Positions 32,557-55,840 of a stretch of 64,000 nucleotides of DNA are shown piece after piece (the stretch's first letter is position 1; every line of letters starts with the position of its first letter). The stretch is taken from positions 1 to 64,000 of IMG/VR virus record IMGVR_UViG_3300045988_145627; one strand, given 5' to 3'. The notes below the pieces were generated by a model. That model had not been told where the DNA came from. It saw only the letters and a list, made by a program, of their open reading frames with translations, and searched no databases. The DNA is from a virus. Lineage: Duplodnaviria > Heunggongvirae > Uroviricota > Caudoviricetes. The position numbers were made by a program, and so were the translations under genes.

Positions 32557-32915
32557 TGTCCATGAAAATGGGTGACCTAGCAAAGCGCAAAGAGCCTGAT
32601 GCACCGGCCAAGAACACAACTCCTTTGCGCCAACCAGTCAGACCACAGGGACGCCCGACTCGTGGCAAAGAGAAAATTAAAAGCCGCACAATGTCACTGG
32701 AAGACGAATACTTCGAACTGCTGGAGATGATGAAGTTCATCCCTCGCTTCGAGAAATTCACCCGCTCTGATGTGATTCGTGCTGCTATTTTCCATCTTGC
32801 GGAGAAGACACCGCAGGAAATCGAGGACATCGTAAAGCTGAACGAGGCGATCACAGCTGCCGATGTCACGATGCGTACCGATGAAATTAAACGCGAGTTG
32901 ATGAAGAAAGGTTAA
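32556..32915 (+). CDS. small partition/centromere-binding protein (ParG/RHH-like), putative
   Basis: Start overlaps parA stop (TAATG); basic disordered N-terminus and short helical C-terminus. Confidence 0.45.
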   Translation: MSMKMGDLAKRKEPDAPAKNTTPLRQPVRPQGRPTRGKEKIKSRTMSLEDEYFELLEMMKFIPRFEKFTRSDVIRAAIFHLAEKTPQEIEDIVKLNEAITAADVTMRTDEIKRELMKKG

Positions 32916-32966
32916 TAATGTGGGCTGTCTAGCCCACATTATTTTAATTAAAGTGGAGTGATAATT

Positions 32967-33719
32967 ATGCATTCGTTAGTATTTGCATTTAAAAACATAC
33001 TCAAGAATGTTATAAACATACTAGGGATGTTAAATATTTTTTTGTCTGTGAGGGTGAGGAGAAAAGATATAAAAGATAAAATAAAGGAACTTAACAAAGA
33101 AAAAGAACAATTAAAAAGCGAAGAAATTATTATTGATTTATACAAGAAAAAACTCGCATCTAGCAAGGGGAAAGCTAATGATAAAATCAAAGGAAAAATT
33201 ATTCACTATATTATTGCTAGAGAGTTGGGGAATGATCCTGATAATGAAGATTTTCGACATAATCTTTTTACAAAGATAAAAGAATCAGAAGAACAGGTTG
33301 AAGTTCTGGTTCATCAAAGAGAAGTAAGTGAGCAGGCGAACAAAAAAGAAACGGTTGTCAATTTGTTTTTATTGTATGAAAAAAATAAATTGTTTAAAGC
33401 TAAGGGGTTGGCTGTGTTTCTTATAGTTATAAACTTAATTATAGTTGCGACTCTCGATCTTCCAGCTTGGTCATTGATTATAAGTTTTTTTATTCTCTCT
33501 TTGATTATGTTGAAAGATCAGATACTTACTATTCGTGTCTCTAAAGGATATTTTGGCACAAGTGCGTATGAAGCGGTTCAATTGCTTAAATTCATCAGAG
33601 AAAATTCAGACAAATTTGACTCAGATGATAATGACGGTAGCCCACGACGGATATTGAATCCGAAGGGAACAACAAAAAAATCAGACAACCTATTCGATAA
33701 AGGGTGGCAAAATGTTTGA
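32967..33719 (+). CDS. A+T-rich membrane protein of unknown function
   Basis: ATG at 32967 with RBS aagtggag; N-terminal hydrophobic segment, Lys/Glu-rich helix, two adjacent TM helices (LAVFLIVINLIIVATL, SLIISFFILSLIML). Confidence 0.5.
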   Translation: MHSLVFAFKNILKNVINILGMLNIFLSVRVRRKDIKDKIKELNKEKEQLKSEEIIIDLYKKKLASSKGKANDKIKGKIIHYIIARELGNDPDNEDFRHNLFTKIKESEEQVEVLVHQREVSEQANKKETVVNLFLLYEKNKLFKAKGLAVFLIVINLIIVATLDLPAWSLIISFFILSLIMLKDQILTIRVSKGYFGTSAYEAVQLLKFIRENSDKFDSDDNDGSPRRILNPKGTTKKSDNLFDKGWQNV

Positions 33720-34134
33720 CCTTGACGCCATCACTAAGTTCTTAAATCAGTGTTTTGATCTACTTTTGCTCAAGCAGCCTTTAAGAACTGTTTTCGGAAT
33801 ACTGATTGGTTTCATTATTTTTGTTTTTGTTTACACGTTTAGGTTTGCGATAGCTCAAGATTTTTATGAAATAGATGGCGTGCATTACGCTGCATGTTTC
33901 GTCATCGGTGTTTTAGTTGTTCACACAAGAACATTTTTTGACGTTATCAAGGGCACCGCAGTTGATGAAGAAATAGATAGTATGATCAGAGTTATTACGA
34001 AGCAGCCACACCTATCTAACCATCAAAAAAACATAATGATTGCTGAAATACTTCAAAAAGAAATTGCAGCCATAAGTCAAAAGAGATTGGATAAAGTTGC
34101 ACAAGAAATGACGGAGAAAAAGACAACTGATTAA
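33712..34134 (+). CDS. A+T-rich membrane protein of unknown function
   Basis: Start overlaps previous gene by 8 nt; two TM helices (VFGILIGFIIFVFVYTF, AACFVIGVLVVHT). Confidence 0.5.
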   Translation: MFDLDAITKFLNQCFDLLLLKQPLRTVFGILIGFIIFVFVYTFRFAIAQDFYEIDGVHYAACFVIGVLVVHTRTFFDVIKGTAVDEEIDSMIRVITKQPHLSNHQKNIMIAEILQKEIAAISQKRLDKVAQEMTEKKTTD

Positions 34135-36448: not shown

Positions 36449-37702
36449 GTGGAGAACACCTCCACGCTTGATTCATTGGTGAAACAACTTTTCTTTTGCC
36501 AAACCACAAAAGAAAAACACATGAGCCTTTATGTTATATCAACATTTAGGTTGGTCACAATATTGCCTGTTAAAAGTGGAATTATCGTGAGCGAGCTGAA
36601 AGAGATAATTACCGAATTAGATTTTGAACAATGGTTGGACACTGAAGGTATCGTTTATCGACGTGGAGGCGTGAGTTCTCGCGGTCGTGAAGTGAATATC
36701 AAAGAGTGTCCGGTATGCGGCAGCTCCAACTGGAAGGTATATTTCAATCTGACCAGTGGCGTCGGCAAATGCTTTGCTGGTGATCATCCCGAAGAGATTC
36801 AGTTCAATAAGCTGGTCTTCCTCAAGCACTACAGCGGTAAATCACGACGACAGTTCGAGGAATATGTGCAGAACGCTCTTCTTTCCCAGGGGTGGGCACC
36901 AAAGAAAGAAGAGATAGTGCTTACAAGCACAGTCGAGTTAGAGGGACCACTTGCACTCCCTCGTCATTACGAACTTCCTATAGATGGCCGTCTTCCAGAC
37001 TATCTGGTTGAACGAAACATATCGCCTGAAATGGCAAAGTATTTTGACCTACGATACTGCGTCGAAGGCAAGCACGCTTATGTAGATCCGTATACAGATC
37101 AGGTAAAAGGACAGATATTCGATATGCGAGTACTGATACCGGTTTACGATCTGGATGGGGTAATGAAGACATTTCAGGGACGAGACATTACCGGTACAGC
37201 AGACCGCCGCTACCTCTTTCCTATGCAGCTTCCAGCTTCAGGTAAGTTTCTCTACAACGGCCATAATGCAGTTGGCAAACAGACTGTAGTTGTCTGTGAG
37301 GGGGCGTTCGATGTTATGGGAGTTAAACGAGCTATTTTTGATGAAGAAACATTACGTGATTACGTGGAACCGATAGGAACGTTCGGGATGCATCTATCTG
37401 GTAACACCACTCAGGATGCAGAAGATCAGTTAGGCGCGTTCCTGACGCTCAAGGCGCGTGGGTTACGTAATGTGATCATGATGTGGGATAGTGAAAAGCA
37501 AGCTATACGCAACACGATGGCCGCAGCCAGGCGATTGACCAGTATTGGTCTTAATGTCAAAGTTGCGTGTTTGGGCGAGGAAGGACTCGACCCCGGCGAT
37601 GCGACACCGGGGCAGATTATCAAAGCCTACTATTGCGCAAAACCTTACTCACGACAGCTTGAACTTTTAAGCAAGGTAAAAGGTATAGCAGCATTAGTTT
37701 GA
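36449..37702 (+). CDS. DNA primase (zinc-ribbon plus TOPRIM)
   Basis: CPVCGSSNWKV...GKCFAGDH zinc ribbon; TOPRIM VVVCEGAFDVMG and MMWDSE; true start uncertain. Confidence 0.7.
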   Translation: MENTSTLDSLVKQLFFCQTTKEKHMSLYVISTFRLVTILPVKSGIIVSELKEIITELDFEQWLDTEGIVYRRGGVSSRGREVNIKECPVCGSSNWKVYFNLTSGVGKCFAGDHPEEIQFNKLVFLKHYSGKSRRQFEEYVQNALLSQGWAPKKEEIVLTSTVELEGPLALPRHYELPIDGRLPDYLVERNISPEMAKYFDLRYCVEGKHAYVDPYTDQVKGQIFDMRVLIPVYDLDGVMKTFQGRDITGTADRRYLFPMQLPASGKFLYNGHNAVGKQTVVVCEGAFDVMGVKRAIFDEETLRDYVEPIGTFGMHLSGNTTQDAEDQLGAFLTLKARGLRNVIMMWDSEKQAIRNTMAAARRLTSIGLNVKVACLGEEGLDPGDATPGQIIKAYYCAKPYSRQLELLSKVKGIAALV

Positions 37703-38731
37703 ACCAGTATTAGTCACGTAAACATTGACCGAAAATGATTTAACTTCTGTGTTGAAGTTGTCAGTCATTACCGCGAGGTAGGCATTCTTGGTATCTCTGA
37801 ATTGCTTCAGGATGATTTGAACGTTATCGGTGCAAACAAACGAGGTAGCCAGATTGCCTCCTTTCTCTGAAAAATCCTTTAGGAAAGTGCAGTCAATTTT
37901 GCCATCATTAGCGGTGAAGGTGGCATCATCACCCTGCCAGGTAAATGTTGCGTTAACGCCTTTATCAATGGATTTAGCAATAAGTCGTTGAGTGGAGGAT
38001 TTTGCTTTAGATCTTGCAGCTGATGGTTGGTATTTACCGCTTTCTTTTAGTTCTGCAATGTAATCACAGCCATTTTTATCTTCTTTATCGCAAGCTGCCT
38101 GATAAAGCTCAGCTGCTTTTTTATAATCTTTTTTAACCCCTTCACCATACTCATACATAATGCCAAGATTCGCCAATGCAGATGCACTGCCTAGTTCGAT
38201 TCCTTTTTTATAATACTCTATTGCCTTTTTGTAGCTTTTTGGCACGCCTGCGCCAACATAATATAACTGTCCTAAATATGACGCAGATTCAGGGTCGCCA
38301 GCCTCTACTGCAAGTTTGTGATATTTCAGGGAAAGTTTTTGGTCTTTCTTACCCGCAAGTCCTTTATGATAAATAACACCCAGATTGTGATAAGAGTTGC
38401 CTCCAGCTGCATCACCAGCTTTCTTAAAGAGTTCCTCTGCCTTTTTGAAATTTTTATCAACCCCATACCCAAGGGCATACATTATACCTAGAGCATTAAA
38501 CGCTTCTTTGTTCCCCTTAGAAGTCGCCAGTTCAAGCCATTTTCTGGCTTCATCGTAGTTTTTTTCGACACCATGAATACCTTTCATATAGTCGATACCT
38601 AAAGCACTCTGTGACTCAACGTCGCCTGCTTTTGCCGCATCGATCAGCTTTTGTATTTCATAGGCATGTGCACTCCCCGAAACAAGTAATAGCGACAACA
38701 TAAAGAAAGATATTGGTTTGAAATGTTTCAT
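37694..38731 (-). CDS. secreted Sel1-repeat (TPR-like) protein
   Basis: Signal peptide MKHFKPISFFMLSLLLVSGSAHA; repeated Sel1-like units ending ...YYKKA/ELYQ.. Confidence 0.75.
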   Translation of the reverse strand: MKHFKPISFFMLSLLLVSGSAHAYEIQKLIDAAKAGDVESQSALGIDYMKGIHGVEKNYDEARKWLELATSKGNKEAFNALGIMYALGYGVDKNFKKAEELFKKAGDAAGGNSYHNLGVIYHKGLAGKKDQKLSLKYHKLAVEAGDPESASYLGQLYYVGAGVPKSYKKAIEYYKKGIELGSASALANLGIMYEYGEGVKKDYKKAAELYQAACDKEDKNGCDYIAELKESGKYQPSAARSKAKSSTQRLIAKSIDKGVNATFTWQGDDATFTANDGKIDCTFLKDFSEKGGNLATSFVCTDNVQIILKQFRDTKNAYLAVMTDNFNTEVKSFSVNVYVTNTGSN

Positions 38732-42978: not shown

Positions 42979-43053
42979 GATGGTGTAGCTCAGCGGTAGA
43001 GCAGTTGGCTGTTAACCAACTGGTCGGTGGTTCGAATCCGTTAACCGGCACCA
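42979..43053 (+). tRNA. tRNA-Asn(GTT)-like, non-canonical T/acceptor stems (possible pseudogene or fragment)
   Basis: Canonical D arm GCTC-AGCGGTA-GAGC, anticodon arm GTTGG-CTGTTAA-CCAAC, T loop TTCGAAT, 3' CCA; T and acceptor stems need wobble pairs and mismatches. Confidence 0.45.
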
Positions 43054-43266
43054 ACACAACAGGAAAGAGCATTGAGAACCGCCGAGACTGCACTGTTTGA
43101 AGCGTAAGTCCGTGCAAACGTCATACAGTGCTCTTTTCGTTGTGGTGAATGCGGCTAAGCGCACGCGGGGAAATGGTTATATTGATCCTTTGTGATGTCT
43201 ATTGGCTCCGTCCACGGTGGATAACCAGCCAAAGGACACCGGGAAGCACCCGGCACCATAACAATT

Positions 43267-43353
43267 GGAGAGTAGGGAGCATGGTGCTCAAGCGGTCTTG
43301 AAAACCGTCCCATTGCGCAAGCGATGATGGTTCGATTCCATTACTCTCCGCCA
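43267..43353 (+). tRNA. tRNA-Ser (anticodon TGA), type II with long variable arm
   Basis: Acceptor GGAGAGT/ACTCTCC, anticodon loop CTTGAAA, T arm GATGG-TTCGATT-CCATT, 3' GCCA. Confidence 0.8.
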
Positions 43354-43508
43354 GACACAGCGTTGAGCGGTTTGGCCTTTTAATCAACTCGATTAAGACT
43401 CCGCTAACATAAACCAGACCGCTCAACGCTGTGATAGACAATTACGGCAGACGTTCTTAACCATAGCTTGCTAACATCCTAGCAACACTTTTTTTCAGCG
43501 CAAAATTC

Positions 43509-43532
43509 AAAGGGGCTTCGGCCCCTTTTTTG
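43509..43532. terminator. bidirectional intrinsic terminator
   Basis: AGGGGC-ttcg-GCCCCT flanked by A-run upstream and T-run downstream; between convergent tRNA locus and minus-strand gene. Confidence 0.7.
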
Positions 43533-43548
43533 AAAGCAATGGGCAAGT

Positions 43549-44883
43549 TCATGCCAAATTATCCAGATTTCTTTTCTTTTGTTCAATTATATTTCTCGCG
43601 CCAGAAAAAATTTTACTCAAAATAATTGATTTGCTTGCTCTATTATTAAGATGTAACAACGCGCTATAAAATACATAGTTATCTATTTTACTATTTAAAG
43701 TATTCCCAAGCTTCCCGTCATATATGCTATTAATAGTATTAAAATATACATGTTCAGGACCTATATTACAAATACCCCTATCAACTCGCTTTAAATAATG
43801 TTTAACTAAAGAAATAGCATCTTCCTTATCATTAATAACATAAAGTCCTGAGCGTTTACCCAGTTTGCTGTTCGAGAGCAATTTACAACCTACAAGCTCA
43901 CTTAACGTATCTTCAAAATTTTTCAACTCTTTGTCGGCGTTTTCCAGATAATGCTCAATCTCTTTCTCCATATTACTTATTAGAGAATTAAATTCTGCTC
44001 GTAACAAATCACCACCAGGTGATTTATAACTCCATAAAATTGAATTGGTAATACGTACTACGTCAGATACTTCTGGTTTCTCTGAATAGTTTTTGTATCT
44101 AGTGCAAATAATGCTGTGCTTTATATATTCTCTAACTAATGATCGATAATCCCTTTCGAAAAGGGTTTTGACATCTAGTCTTCCATTGCTTGTTGTTATT
44201 AGTGTGGTATTTAAAACTGGGTCGCCTTCAAAAAAATTATATTTATTTAGTAATCGTTTTAGCTTGTGTGAATTATGTGATGTTTCGCCATAATAATTTA
44301 GCCCAAAAATAGCAATTATTAGCATAACATCAGGAGTGATGAAATGTCGTAATTGCTCGGCATAAACTTTTTTCTCTTCGATTTTCGAAGATGGAGAGTA
44401 AAAACCTTTGTCTATATATTCTAATATTGAAACAATATTACTAACATAACGTATAAAAACTTGATTCATTACAACGGAACCATAAACCTGATGCAAATAA
44501 TCTACTCTCAAGTTGTTTTTTATTTTTTCCCCTGTGCTAGATGATAACTCTTCTTTTACCTGCCCAAGTAGCTTTTCGTGGTGCTCCAGCAATGTTTTAA
44601 ACCATTGTTCAAATGATGATTTTCTTGCCTCAGTTAATGAATCTGATGTTATCTGGACAGCTTTCATAGCTGCTTTCGCACTTTTCTTTGCTTCATAAGC
44701 GTTCCATGCTGTAGCACAAAAAGCTGCCGCCGTGATGCAACTGGTAAAAATAGAAATCCTATCTGCAACATTCAAGCTCCAGAACCAATCAGACGATGAA
44801 ATCAAAACCACAGATATTACGGGAACAATGAAAATCAAAACAGGCATGTATGTACTCGCTCTAATAGTTATTAGTCGAGGCAA
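43549..44883 (-). CDS. A+T-rich membrane-anchored protein of unknown function (candidate exclusion/abortive-infection factor)
   Basis: 444 aa; N-terminal TM helices (MPVLIFIVPVISVVLISS, ISIFTSCITAAAFCATAW), large soluble C-terminal domain; composition differs visibly from flanks. Confidence 0.55.
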   Translation of the reverse strand: MPRLITIRASTYMPVLIFIVPVISVVLISSSDWFWSLNVADRISIFTSCITAAAFCATAWNAYEAKKSAKAAMKAVQITSDSLTEARKSSFEQWFKTLLEHHEKLLGQVKEELSSSTGEKIKNNLRVDYLHQVYGSVVMNQVFIRYVSNIVSILEYIDKGFYSPSSKIEEKKVYAEQLRHFITPDVMLIIAIFGLNYYGETSHNSHKLKRLLNKYNFFEGDPVLNTTLITTSNGRLDVKTLFERDYRSLVREYIKHSIICTRYKNYSEKPEVSDVVRITNSILWSYKSPGGDLLRAEFNSLISNMEKEIEHYLENADKELKNFEDTLSELVGCKLLSNSKLGKRSGLYVINDKEDAISLVKHYLKRVDRGICNIGPEHVYFNTINSIYDGKLGNTLNSKIDNYVFYSALLHLNNRASKSIILSKIFSGARNIIEQKKRNLDNLA

Positions 44884-45025
44884 ATATTATATAAATCTCG
44901 TTATGATTTACAGACATGTATACGTATTGCTAATTATCACCAACAAATGATAGGTGTGTACATATTTATCATTTGTTGTAAAATTAATGTATACGCTATG
45001 AATACACTAATAATATGAGGTAATC

Positions 45026-45300: not shown

Positions 45301-45482
45301 TTCCCACCAAACTCACACCTGTTTCCCTTAAAATTCAAAAAACAACATCTAAATGATTCCATACCTACTATGTATGGAATCATTACTGAAAATGAGTTAC
45401 TTTTACTCTTGATCCTATAAGAATCTATGCCTAATATACTGTTTACTTATACAGTGCATCGGCGTAACTCGGTGATTGTCAT

Positions 45483-46586
45483 ATGAAAAATAGCTTTGAC
45501 AGAGCACGCGCTGCGGAGAACACCTCAAAAGAGGCGATTGAGTATCTCGAAAGAGCATCTCAAATGCAGGCCGTTATGATCTCCCAGGTCAGCAATGACA
45601 TGAGATTCTCGGACGCATTCATGTTATTCACTCGCTTATCTCTGCTGATAACAAGACGTCGGCCAGAGATCGCTGTTCATTGTATTTTGATACATGTTTT
45701 GCCGCACATTGCCGATGTAAAAGTAAGTGATATTAATAGGTTCATGGTGAACCAACTGGTCAACCCACTAATACTGGATGGCAAAATTGTTATGGGTCGC
45801 CGCGTTTTCTCTCTGATGAAGCAGTTCCTCAGCTGGTGCGCCTTCCAGGGGATGATCGACGTGTCACCGTTAAACGATATGTCACTTAACAAAGTTGCCG
45901 GTGGCGCAAAGCCCACACCTCGCGAGCGGAAGCTAACCGACGCAGAGGTATGGGTGTTCTGGAATATATGGGACTACTTCAATGTGTGTGCTGGTACAAA
46001 ATGGGCGGCCAGGCTATGTCTTGTATCCGCAAGACGACCTGACGAAGTACTGCGGGCTAAAAAAAGTGAGTTCAACCTCCAGCGTGGGGTTTGGAATCAA
46101 GGCAAGAGAAACAAATCAGCCCGTGAGCATTCTCTGCCTTTAAGCACATTAATGCGCACATGCATTGAAGAGTTATTCGAATATGGTAAAGGCAGCCAGT
46201 GGCTTGTGCCTTCGAATAAAAAAATCGGGAAAGATCTTCCGATGTCTAAAGTGGCAATAGCCCAGGCATTACGCCGTATCCTGGAACGACCAGAACTGAT
46301 GGAGCTTGAGCCATTTACACCACGAGATTTGCGTCGTACTGCGCGTAGTTACTTCCCAGCATTAGGCATAAGCCAGGAGGTATCACGTAAAATCATGAAC
46401 CACAGTCTTGAGGGGATAGATCGGGTCTACGACCGGCACGATTATATGGACGAGATGCGAGACGCCTTAGAAAGTTTCTCGACGTACATCGCATCAATCG
46501 TAGAGCAACCGGATTTAGACGAAATTGACCACAAATTCAAGGGAGATCGTCTATCGACAGAGCTTATTCGTGTAAATTTTTCATAG
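45483..46586 (+). CDS. tyrosine recombinase (integrase/resolvase family)
   Basis: C-terminal catalytic region with RRPDE..., FTPRDLRRTARS, NHSLEG..RVYDRHDY (Tyr nucleophile context). Confidence 0.7.
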   Translation: MKNSFDRARAAENTSKEAIEYLERASQMQAVMISQVSNDMRFSDAFMLFTRLSLLITRRRPEIAVHCILIHVLPHIADVKVSDINRFMVNQLVNPLILDGKIVMGRRVFSLMKQFLSWCAFQGMIDVSPLNDMSLNKVAGGAKPTPRERKLTDAEVWVFWNIWDYFNVCAGTKWAARLCLVSARRPDEVLRAKKSEFNLQRGVWNQGKRNKSAREHSLPLSTLMRTCIEELFEYGKGSQWLVPSNKKIGKDLPMSKVAIAQALRRILERPELMELEPFTPRDLRRTARSYFPALGISQEVSRKIMNHSLEGIDRVYDRHDYMDEMRDALESFSTYIASIVEQPDLDEIDHKFKGDRLSTELIRVNFS

Positions 46587-46967
46587 AGACTTTATGGCCT
46601 CAACAACCTTTTGTGATGCGCCTTTCTCTTTACCGAATCGCTCGTTATATGCAGCAAGAACCTGTTTTTCGTCCTCGTTAAGAGGAGCAGTGCCTTCTTT
46701 GTATAAAAATGCTGCGAGTTCGGGTTGGCGTTCTTCCAGCACCATCATCATAAGACGACTTGGCTCAATACCCAGTGCCAGCGCCAGCGGACGAACCTTA
46801 TCGATAGGCAAAGGAATTTTGCCGCTTTTAATTAAAGAAAGGTTGTTGGCGTTTTTATACCCAATTGTTTTGGCTATCTGGGCCTGGCTCATAGGTGAGG
46901 ATTCAATCAACCCTGCGATAAAAGCAGCGTAGCGACTTTCTATAAATTCAATCTTGTTGTCAGACAT
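46581..46967 (-). CDS. XRE-family HTH transcriptional regulator (repressor-like)
   Basis: HTH MSQAQIAKTIGYKNANNLSLIKSGK; divergent from downstream plus-strand operon. Confidence 0.7.
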   Translation of the reverse strand: MSDNKIEFIESRYAAFIAGLIESSPMSQAQIAKTIGYKNANNLSLIKSGKIPLPIDKVRPLALALGIEPSRLMMMVLEERQPELAAFLYKEGTAPLNEDEKQVLAAYNERFGKEKGASQKVVEAIKSL

Positions 46968-47529: not shown

Positions 47530-49638
47530 ATGTCCAAAAAACGTTCCATCAAAGAGGTTCAGGACTTCCGTGACAGTGTAAAACGAGTAGTCGCTCTCCT
47601 TTCAGGTAAAAACATCCCTGTTGCAGAACGAGGGGACGACGCTTATGTACGCTATAACGATGATGGAGAGCCAATTCTCGTAAACATCCCATCAATCCCA
47701 GATAACGCAACACCGGCATTGATGAATGCAGTACGCGGATTTCTAGATCATGAAGTTGCTCACATTTTGTTTACCGATATTCATGTGTCCAACAAAATGA
47801 GAGAAAAAGGACACGTCCCTTCCTGGTCACTATGGAATGCCTTAGAAGACGTGTTCATCGAGCGAAAAATGGGGCAGGTCTTTAACGGAACAAGACGTAA
47901 TCTGATGGCAACTCAGCGCCTGATAATCGAAAAAGTCTTTAAACCAAAGGCTTCAGAGGCTATTACTTATTGTGGCAAAGATCAGCGCGCGCTTTTTCTA
48001 AACTTCTTTCTCTGTCCGGTTGTAAGAGCCTGGGATGGCCAAGCACCGTTCGTAGATTTCATGGATGAATACTGGCCTGTCATTGAGAAACCAATTTCAT
48101 TATTAAAAGAACATGGTATCGATGTGGCCGTGCGTAACATGTCTTGCACGGAGGATTGTTTAAAGGTGGCTGCGACCATAGCTAAGATCCTCAAAGACAC
48201 AGAAAGTGAAAGCAAAGGTAAGGAGTCAGCTCCGGGAAAAACTCCCGATCCTTCAGACGCTGACCAAGCGGATTCCTCTGGAGAAAGTAATGAAGACAAT
48301 GAAGATCACAAGACACATGAGATGCTAGATAATCACATATCTATAGATGATGAGTCACACGGTAAGTACATACATGATGATAACGATAGTGATGATTCAG
48401 ATAATTCTGAATCATCAGAAACAATATTCGATGATACAAAAAATGATAAAGAGGTATTAGATTCTGATACTTCCAATAGCGCGACGACAGAAGCAACTAC
48501 CTCGGATCACGAAAAAAGAAAAACGGCAGAAGACGGCTCTTCAGACATTCCCACTCCGTCCAAAATGAGTCTGGAAGAGGCTTTAGAGGAGCTTGATAGC
48601 ATGGAAGATGAAGTCGGAGGCATGACAGAAGATGCACTATCCGAAACGATTAAAAGCGAGTTAACAGAAAGCTCGAAAAGCGAATACAGGCCATACAATC
48701 GCTCATACGACTTCATCGGTTCGATTGATCAGGCAGAAGCCCATATCAAACGGCTTATTAAAACATTCTCCGATATTGATTTAGGTGGATATCCAATCAG
48801 CCGTTATCGCATCGTTCCTGAAGGCAACCAACTCTTCGACAAATATATTGAAAAGCATCTTTCGTCAGGTGTTTCGTCGACGCTGGCAAAAGACCTGGAG
48901 CGTGCAATTGCAAGCAGAAACAGAGTTCAGTTTATACCGGGCCAGCGTCGGGGGCGCATTCATGGTTCTAGTATCTACAGATTAGCAATGAATGATGATC
49001 GCGTGTTTCGTAAAAAAGAAGAATCTAAGGCCGTTAACGCCTGTGTTCAACAAGTGATTGATTTATCAGGTTCAATGAGCGGCGAAACGATTAAACTGGC
49101 TCTTGCAAGTGCATATACCATCGCCGATGCGCTTGATCGAATAAATGTTCCCAACATTATCACCGGCTTCACAACATTTGGTAGTCATATGGCAGCAGGA
49201 GAGCTTAAGGCAATCAAGTATGAGTTCTCTCGCTTTGAATCTTTAATGCTACCTATCATCAAAAATTGGAATGAAAAGGCAAATTCTCGCGAAGTTCGCT
49301 CACGTATGGGGTGCGTAGGCTACACATTCCCACTTCTTAATAACGTGGATGGTGAAAGCATAGCCAGCCTTGCATCGTTATTTTCTGGTCGCATGGAGGA
49401 CAAGAAGATCATGCTTGTTCTAAGCGATGGCGCGCCGTGGGCTGTTGGGAGAGGTTTTGACGCTCATTTGCGTTCGGTTGCGAAGCAAATTGAAACGCAG
49501 ACTGACATTGATTTGATGGCAATTGGCATCATGACTGACGCACCGGAGAGATTTTACGCAAACCATGCCCTAGTAACGAGCGTTGATAGTCTTGGTTCAT
49601 CTGTAGTTACTGAACTATCTCGTATCATTTTGAAGTGA
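47530..49638 (+). CDS. von Willebrand factor A domain protein (CobT-like) with acidic low-complexity insert
   Basis: MIDAS motif IDLSGSMSGE; Asp/Ser/Glu-rich stretch DDNDSDDSDNSESSE. Confidence 0.75.
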   Translation: MSKKRSIKEVQDFRDSVKRVVALLSGKNIPVAERGDDAYVRYNDDGEPILVNIPSIPDNATPALMNAVRGFLDHEVAHILFTDIHVSNKMREKGHVPSWSLWNALEDVFIERKMGQVFNGTRRNLMATQRLIIEKVFKPKASEAITYCGKDQRALFLNFFLCPVVRAWDGQAPFVDFMDEYWPVIEKPISLLKEHGIDVAVRNMSCTEDCLKVAATIAKILKDTESESKGKESAPGKTPDPSDADQADSSGESNEDNEDHKTHEMLDNHISIDDESHGKYIHDDNDSDDSDNSESSETIFDDTKNDKEVLDSDTSNSATTEATTSDHEKRKTAEDGSSDIPTPSKMSLEEALEELDSMEDEVGGMTEDALSETIKSELTESSKSEYRPYNRSYDFIGSIDQAEAHIKRLIKTFSDIDLGGYPISRYRIVPEGNQLFDKYIEKHLSSGVSSTLAKDLERAIASRNRVQFIPGQRRGRIHGSSIYRLAMNDDRVFRKKEESKAVNACVQQVIDLSGSMSGETIKLALASAYTIADALDRINVPNIITGFTTFGSHMAAGELKAIKYEFSRFESLMLPIIKNWNEKANSREVRSRMGCVGYTFPLLNNVDGESIASLASLFSGRMEDKKIMLVLSDGAPWAVGRGFDAHLRSVAKQIETQTDIDLMAIGIMTDAPERFYANHALVTSVDSLGSSVVTELSRIILK

Positions 49639-54668: not shown

Positions 54669-54807
54669 ACAAAGCGAACACCATGAAGGTGGCCAAAGAG
54701 CAAAGAGTTTATGGAAGTAAACAAGATTGGCGATGTGAGACAGTACAGGCTGAAGCGCCAGACCAGAGTCACGCTATCCAATATTTTTGGTAAGAAAGTC
54801 GCCTAAT

Positions 54808-54836
54808 GAAAAGCTCGTCAATTGACGAGCTTTTCA
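54808..54836. terminator. bidirectional intrinsic terminator between convergent genes
   Basis: GAAAAGCTCGTC-aatt-GACGAGCTTTTC. Confidence 0.7.
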
Positions 54837-54841
54837 TTTGA

Positions 54842-55840
54842 CTATCTTGAATTAGGGGCTTTCTCTATAATTATTCGATTCAGAATATGATTACGATCAC
54901 TGTATGGTTCGAAATGTTCTGCAATCGAGTATGAACCGACACTACGTGCGACCACATCTTCAAAATATTCAAGGATTTTAGGTAGATACTTTTCATAATT
55001 TTGTGAACAAATCGACACTACAGGATCGAATTCTACTAATCGACGCTTTACACGTATATGGTTATTTATTTTTTCATATTCATTCATCATAGAGTTCAAG
55101 TCTGGTACTACCCGCTCAGGGCTACACAGGTAGGTGCTGCGGTCATACTCGTCTCCGAATTTATCAAGAGGAACACCTATCTCTAGCAACGTCTTGTTTA
55201 CTCGCTTTGCAAGCTCAATTATCTCTTTATCTTCTTCTGTAAGCCACATGTCGACCCACTTTTGTTTGTCTGCCCATTCAGACAGATAATCATCCTTATT
55301 GAAAGTTACAGGAGCACATCCAGAGTCACTTCTTAATGCTTTATCCTTTATTTTAGAAATTGTTTTTTTATCTAAATGCTTCCAATAAATAGCAGGTTCG
55401 TCTAATTCATTATCATCGTGTAGGCATATCAAAACAATTACCACAGGAAAATCACAACTTCCCCAATAGGTTATATTTTTATAAGGTATTTGTACGCTTA
55501 ACCTTCTCTTCATTTTGCGTGAGGTGGTTTTTATCTGAACGCCGATAAAAAAACCTGTCGAAAGATTATTTTCATATATTTCAACCTGAGCATCCAATCC
55601 CATATCAATATCTAGCAATCGACAAGGCCATCTGAAATAACGAGAAATCCAATAGGCAAACAAGTACTCTCCAGCGTGTCCATCCGCACTGGTTTTCGGA
55701 TATGTCATACCTTCAGTTTTATTCTTTTCTGCCGCTGGCTTTACAGACTTAGCTTTTGGGGGGAGGGCTGTTTTTTTAGTCGGCACTGACTTTGTTGCTT
55801 TGACTTGTTTGTTAGCCTTATCCATTGGTTTTATTCTCAA
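54842..55840 (-). CDS. A+T-rich protein with Lys-rich N-terminus and PD-(D/E)xK-like nuclease-fold motifs (DUF4365-like, from memory)
   Basis: GHAGEYLFAYWISRYF...LDIDMGLDAQVEIYENN...GFFIGVQIKT pattern; opposite strand to flanking replication genes. Confidence 0.45.
   Translation of the reverse strand: MRIKPMDKANKQVKATKSVPTKKTALPPKAKSVKPAAEKNKTEGMTYPKTSADGHAGEYLFAYWISRYFRWPCRLLDIDMGLDAQVEIYENNLSTGFFIGVQIKTTSRKMKRRLSVQIPYKNITYWGSCDFPVVIVLICLHDDNELDEPAIYWKHLDKKTISKIKDKALRSDSGCAPVTFNKDDYLSEWADKQKWVDMWLTEEDKEIIELAKRVNKTLLEIGVPLDKFGDEYDRSTYLCSPERVVPDLNSMMNEYEKINNHIRVKRRLVEFDPVVSICSQNYEKYLPKILEYFEDVVARSVGSYSIAEHFEPYSDRNHILNRIIIEKAPNSR

Follow-up and report, generated by a model that had tools for sequence, protein, structure and literature searches.

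AbiC and AbiP have been known from dairy lactococci for decades, and AbiC still lacks a known mechanism or fold. A review groups AbiC, which has two transmembrane (TM) helices, and AbiP, which has one, as AbiC/P, without assigning a fold (PMC13064643). According to the review, AbiP prefers RNA to single-stranded DNA in binding, depends on its TM segment, and has a major tail protein as its trigger (PMC13064643). AbiC reduces the output of capsid protein. Here we describe a minus-strand gene at positions 43549 to 44847 of the IMG/VR virus record IMGVR_UViG_3300045988_145627, of which 64,000 nucleotides were analyzed as one strand (referred to as the window). Its product, a 432-residue protein, is most likely a divergent enterobacterial member of the AbiC/AbiP group (Pfam putAbiC) rather than a new kind of system, and the gene is most likely a stand-alone accessory gene ("moron") of an SSU5/pHCM2-like Escherichia coli phage-plasmid. 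We put the probability that it is a membrane-anchored defense gene of the AbiC/P type at roughly 55%.

Remote homology to AbiC and AbiP

The protein has a single meaningful Pfam match, to putAbiC (PF16872, "putative phage abortive infection protein"), covering residues 132 to 207 (44227 to 44454, minus strand), the region that also aligned to lactococcal AbiC-like proteins. A reading made earlier from the DNA alone (the sequence-only reading) had found no motif to assign in the soluble domain; putAbiC can be assigned, at threshold, with a score barely above the gathering cutoff (22.1 against 22.0 bits; E = 2.2e-4; profile positions 7 to 73 of 80). The isolated N-terminal cytoplasmic segment scored 22.8 bits against the same profile, which was also matched by 6 of 11 close relatives. 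Among 64 full-length representatives of the wider family, 51 matched putAbiC (best E = 1.4e-11), 9 matched the PADLOC model for AbiC (1.3e-6), and 6 matched that for AbiP (1e-4). Some of these wider relatives carry the NCBI name "putative phage abortive infection protein." The family is small: a search of 5.8 billion proteins returned 12 clusters, and an exhaustive profile search returned 84 of 1.84 billion representatives. Its invariant residues are Y134, F205, and F206.

For comparison with lactococcal proteins, we used the AbiC-like gene of Lactococcus lactis plasmid p275A and its relatives as a proxy for AbiC of pTN20. In hhalign, the wider family aligned to this lactococcal family with 73% probability and E = 3e-5; the alignment spans 61 core columns, equivalent to residues 129 to 187 of the window protein. 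The AlphaFold model of a lactococcal AbiC-like member has helices at residues 14 to 40 and 54 to 119 (about 65 residues), followed by a bundle holding the core. It shares its plan with the model of the window protein: a first TM helix, a second one extended into a long stalk, and then a bundle of helices. Also common to both families is a moderately hydrophobic helix within the core.

The window gene resembles lactococcal AbiC (Prf, pTN20) and its AbiC-like relatives in being a single gene on a mobile element, in lacking a recognizable enzymatic fold, and, as far as the models predict, in having two N-terminal TM helices, the second extended as a very long helix, and an all-helical cytoplasmic domain with a putAbiC core. 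It differs in that the similarity is confined to about 60 to 75 residues at the Pfam threshold, the core begins at residue 132 rather than about 190 (a shorter spacing from the N terminus), and about 225 additional C-terminal residues have no counterpart (432 versus about 340 residues in total). It also differs in residing on a phage-plasmid of Gram-negative bacteria and in being missed by the PADLOC AbiC model. AbiP is the only mechanistic precedent, with its nucleic acid binding, TM requirement, and structural-protein trigger. It too is a membrane-anchored helical protein, and it is linked to the family by the six PADLOC matches above, but it has one TM helix and is much shorter, and the window protein itself has no AbiP match.

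Other searches returned little. NCBIfam gave noise only, and PHROGs gave only families of unknown function, 18168 (1e-185) and 38218; members of the former presumably stem from prophage or plasmid-derived entries. No solved structure resembled the protein in a sequence-profile search of the PDB, and the C-terminal 229 residues alone had no Pfam match at E ≤ 10. Abi_C (PF14355, found in AbiJ and SadR) is an unrelated HEPN RNase domain (PMC13590631) that is similar in name alone. We rejected the "Abi_C" of the Staphylococcus aureus SadR paper as a lead on this ground; the window protein has no HEPN match in Pfam, and the family invariants contain no conserved R-x4-6-H motif or Arg-His pair.

Gene and protein architecture

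The sequence-only reading had described a 444-residue, A+T-rich, minus-strand gene with N-terminal TM helices, opposite in orientation to its neighbors. Apart from the protein length, this description stands. The open reading frame is present at 43549 to 44883 on the minus strand, with 444 residues counted from a TTG codon, but translation almost certainly starts at the ATG at 44847, leaving the first 12 codons untranslated, because all 10 homologues begin with Met-Pro at that position. The DNA around this ATG (ACATACATGCC) is kept even beside 30%-identical alleles and is one of only two such patches. The Prokaryotic Genome Annotation Pipeline calls the same 1,299-bp coding sequence (43549 to 44847, with the stop codon at 43549 to 43551), as hypothetical protein WP_021533200.1. 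The G+C fraction of the gene is 0.329, compared with 0.462 for the whole window, a value as low in only 0.3% of equal-sized segments. Both neighbors, tRNA-Asn/tRNA-Ser on one side and grxA/recombinase on the other, lie on the plus strand.

The protein is basic (pI of about 9) and is predicted to be anchored by two N-terminal helices, in line with the one or two of the AbiC/P group. The first (residues 1 to 19; 44791 to 44847, minus strand) is strongly hydrophobic, with Kyte-Doolittle scores of 2.4 to 2.7, and poorly conserved in sequence. The second (TM2; residues 30 to 50; 44698 to 44760, minus strand) is Ala/Thr rich, with a score of 1.7 over residues 31 to 47, and its invariant residues are T39, A42, F43, A45, T46, A47, W48, and A50. 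It runs on as a long basic stalk helix to about residue 101. In the AlphaFold model (mean predicted local distance difference test score of 82.9, predicted template modeling score of 0.71), helices span residues 2 to 18 and 27 to 101, with TM2 fused into the latter, a 75-residue helix, and a helical bundle follows. The TM helices of the sequence-only reading therefore hold up on hydropathy and on the modeled helices. The loop between them is poorly conserved. Its shortness (about 10 residues) and acidic character and the Lys-rich stretch that follows TM2 suggest a hairpin with both termini inside and a helical domain of about 380 residues in the cytoplasm. The C-terminal part (residues 208 to 432; 43552 to 44226, minus strand) is a variable domain without a family or fold match and with about 22% identity between alleles. 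We considered a holin or other lysis protein and rejected it on the basis of size and the large cytoplasmic domain.

A variable slot in a conserved phage-plasmid backbone

E. coli plasmids of about 110 kb share 95 to 98% identity with the region around the gene, as do "Escherichia phage CMS-2020a," Cyrano, and PhiR41_1. The region encodes, in order, a DnaB-like helicase, a primase-like protein, an ATP-dependent ligase, tRNAs, glutaredoxin, a tyrosine recombinase, a helix-turn-helix regulator (46581 to 46967), CobT/CobS-like proteins, and dnaE, and we assign it by its sequence to the replication arm of an SSU5/pHCM2-type E. coli phage-plasmid.

Compared with otherwise about 97%-identical phage-plasmids, similarity ends at 43535 and resumes at 45014, 12 nucleotides before grxA, and what lies between changes from plasmid to plasmid. 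The sequence-only reading had proposed an accessory hotspot between the tRNA locus and the glutaredoxin/recombinase block; the comparison turns this into a sharply bounded, exchangeable cassette (43536 to 45013) in a conserved backbone. The cassette holds the AbiC/P-like gene only, with no partner antitoxin-like open reading frame. Its left boundary falls just past a bidirectional intrinsic-terminator hairpin (43506 to 43533; GGGGC-TTCG-GCCCC between runs of A and T), which belongs to the conserved left flank. This GC-rich hairpin lies 16 nucleotides past the stop codon and, judging by its sequence, could terminate transcription from both directions.

Presence and absence among relatives, the check that the sequence-only reading had suggested, showed the gene to be present, divergent, or missing in close relatives. 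Of 233 PLSDB plasmids with the conserved left flank, 11 have exactly this allele, as do 6 of 211 complete E. coli genomes with that flank. Some relatives, plasmid p4_0.2 for example, lack the gene and have a Gp49-family gene next to grxA instead, and many other related plasmids carry a homologue that is 27 to 51% identical. By tblastn, the family is found in 133 PLSDB plasmids, mostly 105 to 115 kb and nonmobilizable, from Escherichia (67), Klebsiella (37), Enterobacter (18), Salmonella (6), Citrobacter (2), Pantoea (2), and an uncultured source (1). The same slot, between the tRNA cluster and a phoH/gp49/grxA block, is occupied in E. coli, E. albertii, Klebsiella, Enterobacter, Salmonella, and a metagenomic contig, and the homologues in this shared slot are on the opposite strand without exception. 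In Klebsiella, Enterobacter, and metagenome relatives (L011, L012, and L016; L numbers denote the relative loci that were compared), the AbiC/P-like gene is separated from grxA by phoH, a Sequestin-domain gene, and gp49.

The occupants of the slot are deeply divergent. The E. coli element L004, whose allele encodes 420 residues, matches the window at 98% identity in GrxA and 99% in the tyrosine recombinase, but at only 32% in the AbiC/P-like protein. There are at least four allele groups, mutually 62 to 69% different. They diverge by module, with 47 to 54% identity retained in TM2, the stalk, and the putAbiC core and about 22% in the linker and the entire C-terminal half. On a finer scale, 13 of the 21 changes between the window protein and the pEc631_2 allele fall in residues 299 to 326 (43870 to 43953, minus strand). 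Synonymous divergence (dS) is also high there, and we therefore interpret this mosaic patch as a recombination tract and not as a product of selection.

The P2 old/tin/fun region and the P4 hotspots are fixed-slot defense cassettes of temperate phages and satellites. The slot described here is like them in that a conserved backbone carries A+T-rich cargo with sharp boundaries and the opposite orientation, and close relatives differ in this cargo. Unlike theirs, its contents are not unrelated systems: mostly, it is either occupied by strongly diverged alleles of a single family or left empty.

Family members are also found elsewhere. One gene copy, together with tRNA-Ser, moved as an insertion sequence (IS)-flanked fragment onto an unrelated plasmid that also bears an AIPR gene, and a lambdoid prophage has one relative at its int/xis end. 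A Pantoea-type clade on plasmids lies beside genes for Mrr-like (Mrr_cat), HEPN-Toprim (HEPN_Toprim_N), PARIS-like AAA_15 plus DUF4435, and Fic/Phd proteins, and another relative lies beside HNH, umuDC, and integrase genes. We regard these neighborhoods outside phage-plasmids as defense-island or moron positions. The family recurs in defense islands and as variable cargo of mobile elements.

A conserved palindrome upstream of the gene

The sequence-only reading had noted a perfect 12-bp inverted repeat upstream of the gene and suggested dedicated regulation. The repeat is exactly as described, with arms CAACAAATGATA (44941 to 44952) and TATCATTTGTTG (44967 to 44978), and these arms are the outer part of a 38-bp near-palindrome (44941 to 44978; core TGATAGGTGTGTACATATTTATCA) in the divergent promoter region shared with grxA. 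Such a repeat arose in about 0.4% of Markov shuffles of the 178-bp spacer, and the locus is one of only 5 of its kind in the 64 kb, against 0.07 expected. No second copy of the palindrome, which would be a sign of a regulon, was found within the window.

A palindrome is present at the homologous position upstream of every allele, whichever gene is the divergent neighbor (grxA or phoH), and is absent from the relative without the gene. It reads GATAGGTGTGTGCATACTTATC in L004, AGATAGGTAAGTGTGTACCTATCT in L014, and AAATAGGTAAGTCATTACCTATTT in both the Enterobacter (L012) and Salmonella (L013) relatives. In the window it overlaps promoter-like hexamers on both strands, including a minus-strand −35/−10 pair, TGTACA-18-GATAAT (44933 to 44962), that is a consensus match only. 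Given its conserved position across divergent alleles and genera, its uniqueness in the window, its absence where the gene is absent, and its overlap with promoter-like hexamers, the palindrome is a candidate dedicated operator. The half-site common to the alleles (ATAGGTA/TACCTAT) was compared by eye with LexA, CRP, and Fur boxes and fits none of them.

Proposed function and alternatives

The gene probably encodes a single-gene, membrane-anchored abortive-infection protein. A promoter in the spacer divergent from grxA, controlled by the palindromic operator, would drive this gene alone, with transcription ending at the hairpin terminator. The two-helix hairpin would anchor the protein in the inner membrane, with both ends and the large helical domain in the cytoplasm. 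The variable C-terminal half may serve as a sensor or specificity module for a late or structural product of the infecting phage, and the N-terminal half, whose TM2, basic stalk, and putAbiC core are conserved, as the effector. The effector might disturb the membrane through oligomerization of the Ala/Thr-rich TM2 or might bind nucleic acid at the membrane, as AbiP does; by either route, infection would be halted before progeny are made. Sensing, effector action, and abortive outcome are proposed here on the strength of the AbiP and AbiC precedents and the pattern of conservation, and we hold these details with less confidence than the assignment to the group. The divergent alleles and the sharp boundaries of the cassette are consistent with exchange by recombination in the conserved flanks.

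A more ambitious version of this proposal is conceivable, though we consider it doubtful. The slot would be a polymorphic recognition locus of SSU5-type phage-plasmids, in which a C-terminal domain of novel fold reads a structural protein of incoming phages (rival phage-plasmids included), the invariant Ala/Thr-rich TM2 and the stalk form a membrane-damaging oligomer, frequency-dependent selection keeps the alleles diverse, and the dedicated operator switches the gene on.

Several results weigh against assignment to the AbiC/P group. In the search against defense profiles that the sequence-only reading had proposed, PADLOC matched neither the window protein nor any of the 10 relatives closest to it, with hits allowed up to E ≤ 10. 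The Pfam score is no better than the cutoff requires, the significant alignment to AbiC covers only about 60 residues, and the narrow family of close relatives aligned to the lactococcal profile without significance. The family alignment shows no catalytic or nucleic acid-binding motif and no conserved polar or catalytic residues. No relative was found by tblastn among 50,697 phage records, SSU5-like phages included. Ratios of nonsynonymous to synonymous divergence between close alleles are 0.07 and 0.45, and we rejected positive selection on these values and on the high dS of the cluster at residues 299 to 326. Finally, a lactococcal AbiC-like homologue, 38% identical to AbiC, gave no resistance to the phages against which it was tested (PMC11381338), so homology is no guarantee of activity. 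On the other side, no homology to a conserved phage structural or replication protein, the outcome that the sequence-only reading had named as telling against its abortive-infection candidate, was found in our searches, and the remote but consistent homology to the AbiC/P group points toward that candidate.

Superinfection exclusion would make the protein a direct rather than an abortive defense, one that blocks DNA entry of incoming phages or rival phage-plasmids at the membrane without killing the cell. A membrane-anchored protein of a temperate element, whose gene runs opposite to the replication genes and has its own predicted promoter and terminator, would suit this role, as would the fact that TM2 and the juxtamembrane segment are the best-conserved parts; deep allelic diversity in a fixed slot also fits competition among phage-plasmids. 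We nevertheless consider exclusion unlikely. Only the poorly conserved loop of about 10 residues is predicted to reach the periplasm, with about 380 residues predicted to be cytoplasmic, homology was detectable solely to Abi proteins, whose action follows DNA entry, and no Sie or Imm family was matched in Pfam, NCBIfam, or PHROGs.

The protein could instead be a membrane-tethered factor for the phage-plasmid itself, acting in lysogeny or lysis control, in replication or partition at the membrane, or in lysis timing. Its dispensability makes such a role improbable: the gene is missing from many otherwise about 97%-identical phage-plasmids and from all records of the phage collection, SSU5-like phages included. 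Position, strand, and upstream palindrome are kept across five genera of SSU5-like elements, and the gene is placed among replication genes (ligase, primase/helicase, CobT/CobS-like, and dnaE), as a function in the element's own biology would lead one to expect, but 32% identity beside flanks of 98 to 99% is unlike a housekeeping function, and relatives lie outside phage-plasmids, in defense islands and on the IS-flanked fragment.

A role unrelated to phage, as a membrane toxin in an addiction or competition module or as a host-modulating factor (a moron for envelope stress or virulence, for instance), is very improbable: the conserved TM helices, the basic character of the protein (pI of about 9), and the YafO toxin and colicin-E1-type immunity gene in the variable region of relatives would be in keeping with it, but the cassette consists of this gene without an antitoxin-like partner, Pfam and NCBIfam link the family to no virulence or toxin family, and the family-level matches are to Abi models.

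Significance of a probable enterobacterial AbiC/P branch

With abortive infection of the AbiC/P type as the preferred reading, two aspects of this locus stand out. One is a probable enterobacterial AbiC/P branch that is invisible to PADLOC, annotated only as "hypothetical protein," and equipped with a new C-terminal domain. The other is an unusual population structure, with deep alleles in a fixed phage-plasmid slot that carries a candidate operator. A related clade on common phage-plasmids of Enterobacteriaceae would allow the mechanism to be studied in E. coli with standard phage panels, and the natural alleles, conserved in the N-terminal half and variable in the C-terminal half, are ready-made domain swaps. 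If the polymorphic-recognition proposal is true, the locus would be the first genetically tractable E. coli model of a 30-year-old group whose mechanism is unsolved.

A DefenseFinder-based survey of phage-plasmids reported other systems, and no AbiC, in the SSU5 group (10.1101/2025.09.12.675607). Since the clade occurs in 133 PLSDB plasmids, is named only "hypothetical protein," is missed by PADLOC, and does not appear as AbiC in that survey, the defense cargo of such phage-plasmids is probably undercounted. SSU5-type phage-plasmids occur widely among clinical strains of E. coli, Shigella, Klebsiella, and Salmonella, and the gene could therefore affect phage therapy and plasmid competition.

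Other features of the window

The tRNA cluster next to the slot (42979 to 43353) differs among near-identical elements, with Asn and Ser in the window, Asn, Thr, and Ser in pLR-48_2, and Asn, Tyr, Thr, and Ser in p4_0.2; parts of it are 86 to 94% identical to tRNA regions of phages P1, P7, and D6. Between the two tRNA genes of the window, a small RNA match to Rfam STnc100 (43121 to 43289, plus strand) scored 43.4 bits, just under the gathering score of 47 (E = 2.4e-7).

On the other side of the slot, a lox/FRT-like site (45352 to 45384) lies between grxA and the tyrosine recombinase gene (45483 to 46586). It consists of 13-bp inverted arms and a 7-bp spacer (AATGATTCCATAC-CTACTAT-GTATGGAATCATT). 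In Klebsiella, Enterobacter, and Salmonella relatives it is 91 to 94% conserved, against only about 74% identity in the flanks. The site is probably the target of the recombinase, for example, for multimer resolution. The stretch from grxA to the recombinase is variable too in L011, L012, and L016, where it encodes a YafO-family toxin and a partner open reading frame, and in Klebsiella relatives it also contains a colicin-E1-type immunity gene.

A second low-GC (about 0.38) accessory gene on the opposite strand lies just past dnaE (54842 to 55840, minus strand). Its 332-residue product has a DUF4365 domain (E = 9.6e-16) and a PADLOC match to Aga_REase-PNTD (1.7e-10) and is likely a defense protein with a restriction endonuclease fold, as predicted from these matches. 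A perfect inverted repeat (54805 to 54838) adjoins this gene. The lowest-GC kilobase of the window (0.33; 32958 to 34134, plus strand) contains two overlapping open reading frames of 253 and 140 residues with hydrophobic segments and no Pfam match; the pair directly follows ParA/ParB-like partition genes and has a perfect inverted repeat just upstream (32914 to 32943). A further gene of lower GC content (37694 to 38731, minus strand) encodes a 345-residue Sel1-repeat protein with a signal peptide (Pfam Sel1, 1e-37); it is present in the related phage-plasmids L004 and L008 and absent from L005 to L007. Lastly, a perfect 12-bp inverted repeat with a 4-nucleotide loop (TGATGATTCAGA; 48390 to 48417) lies within the acidic, low-complexity middle of the CobT-like gene.

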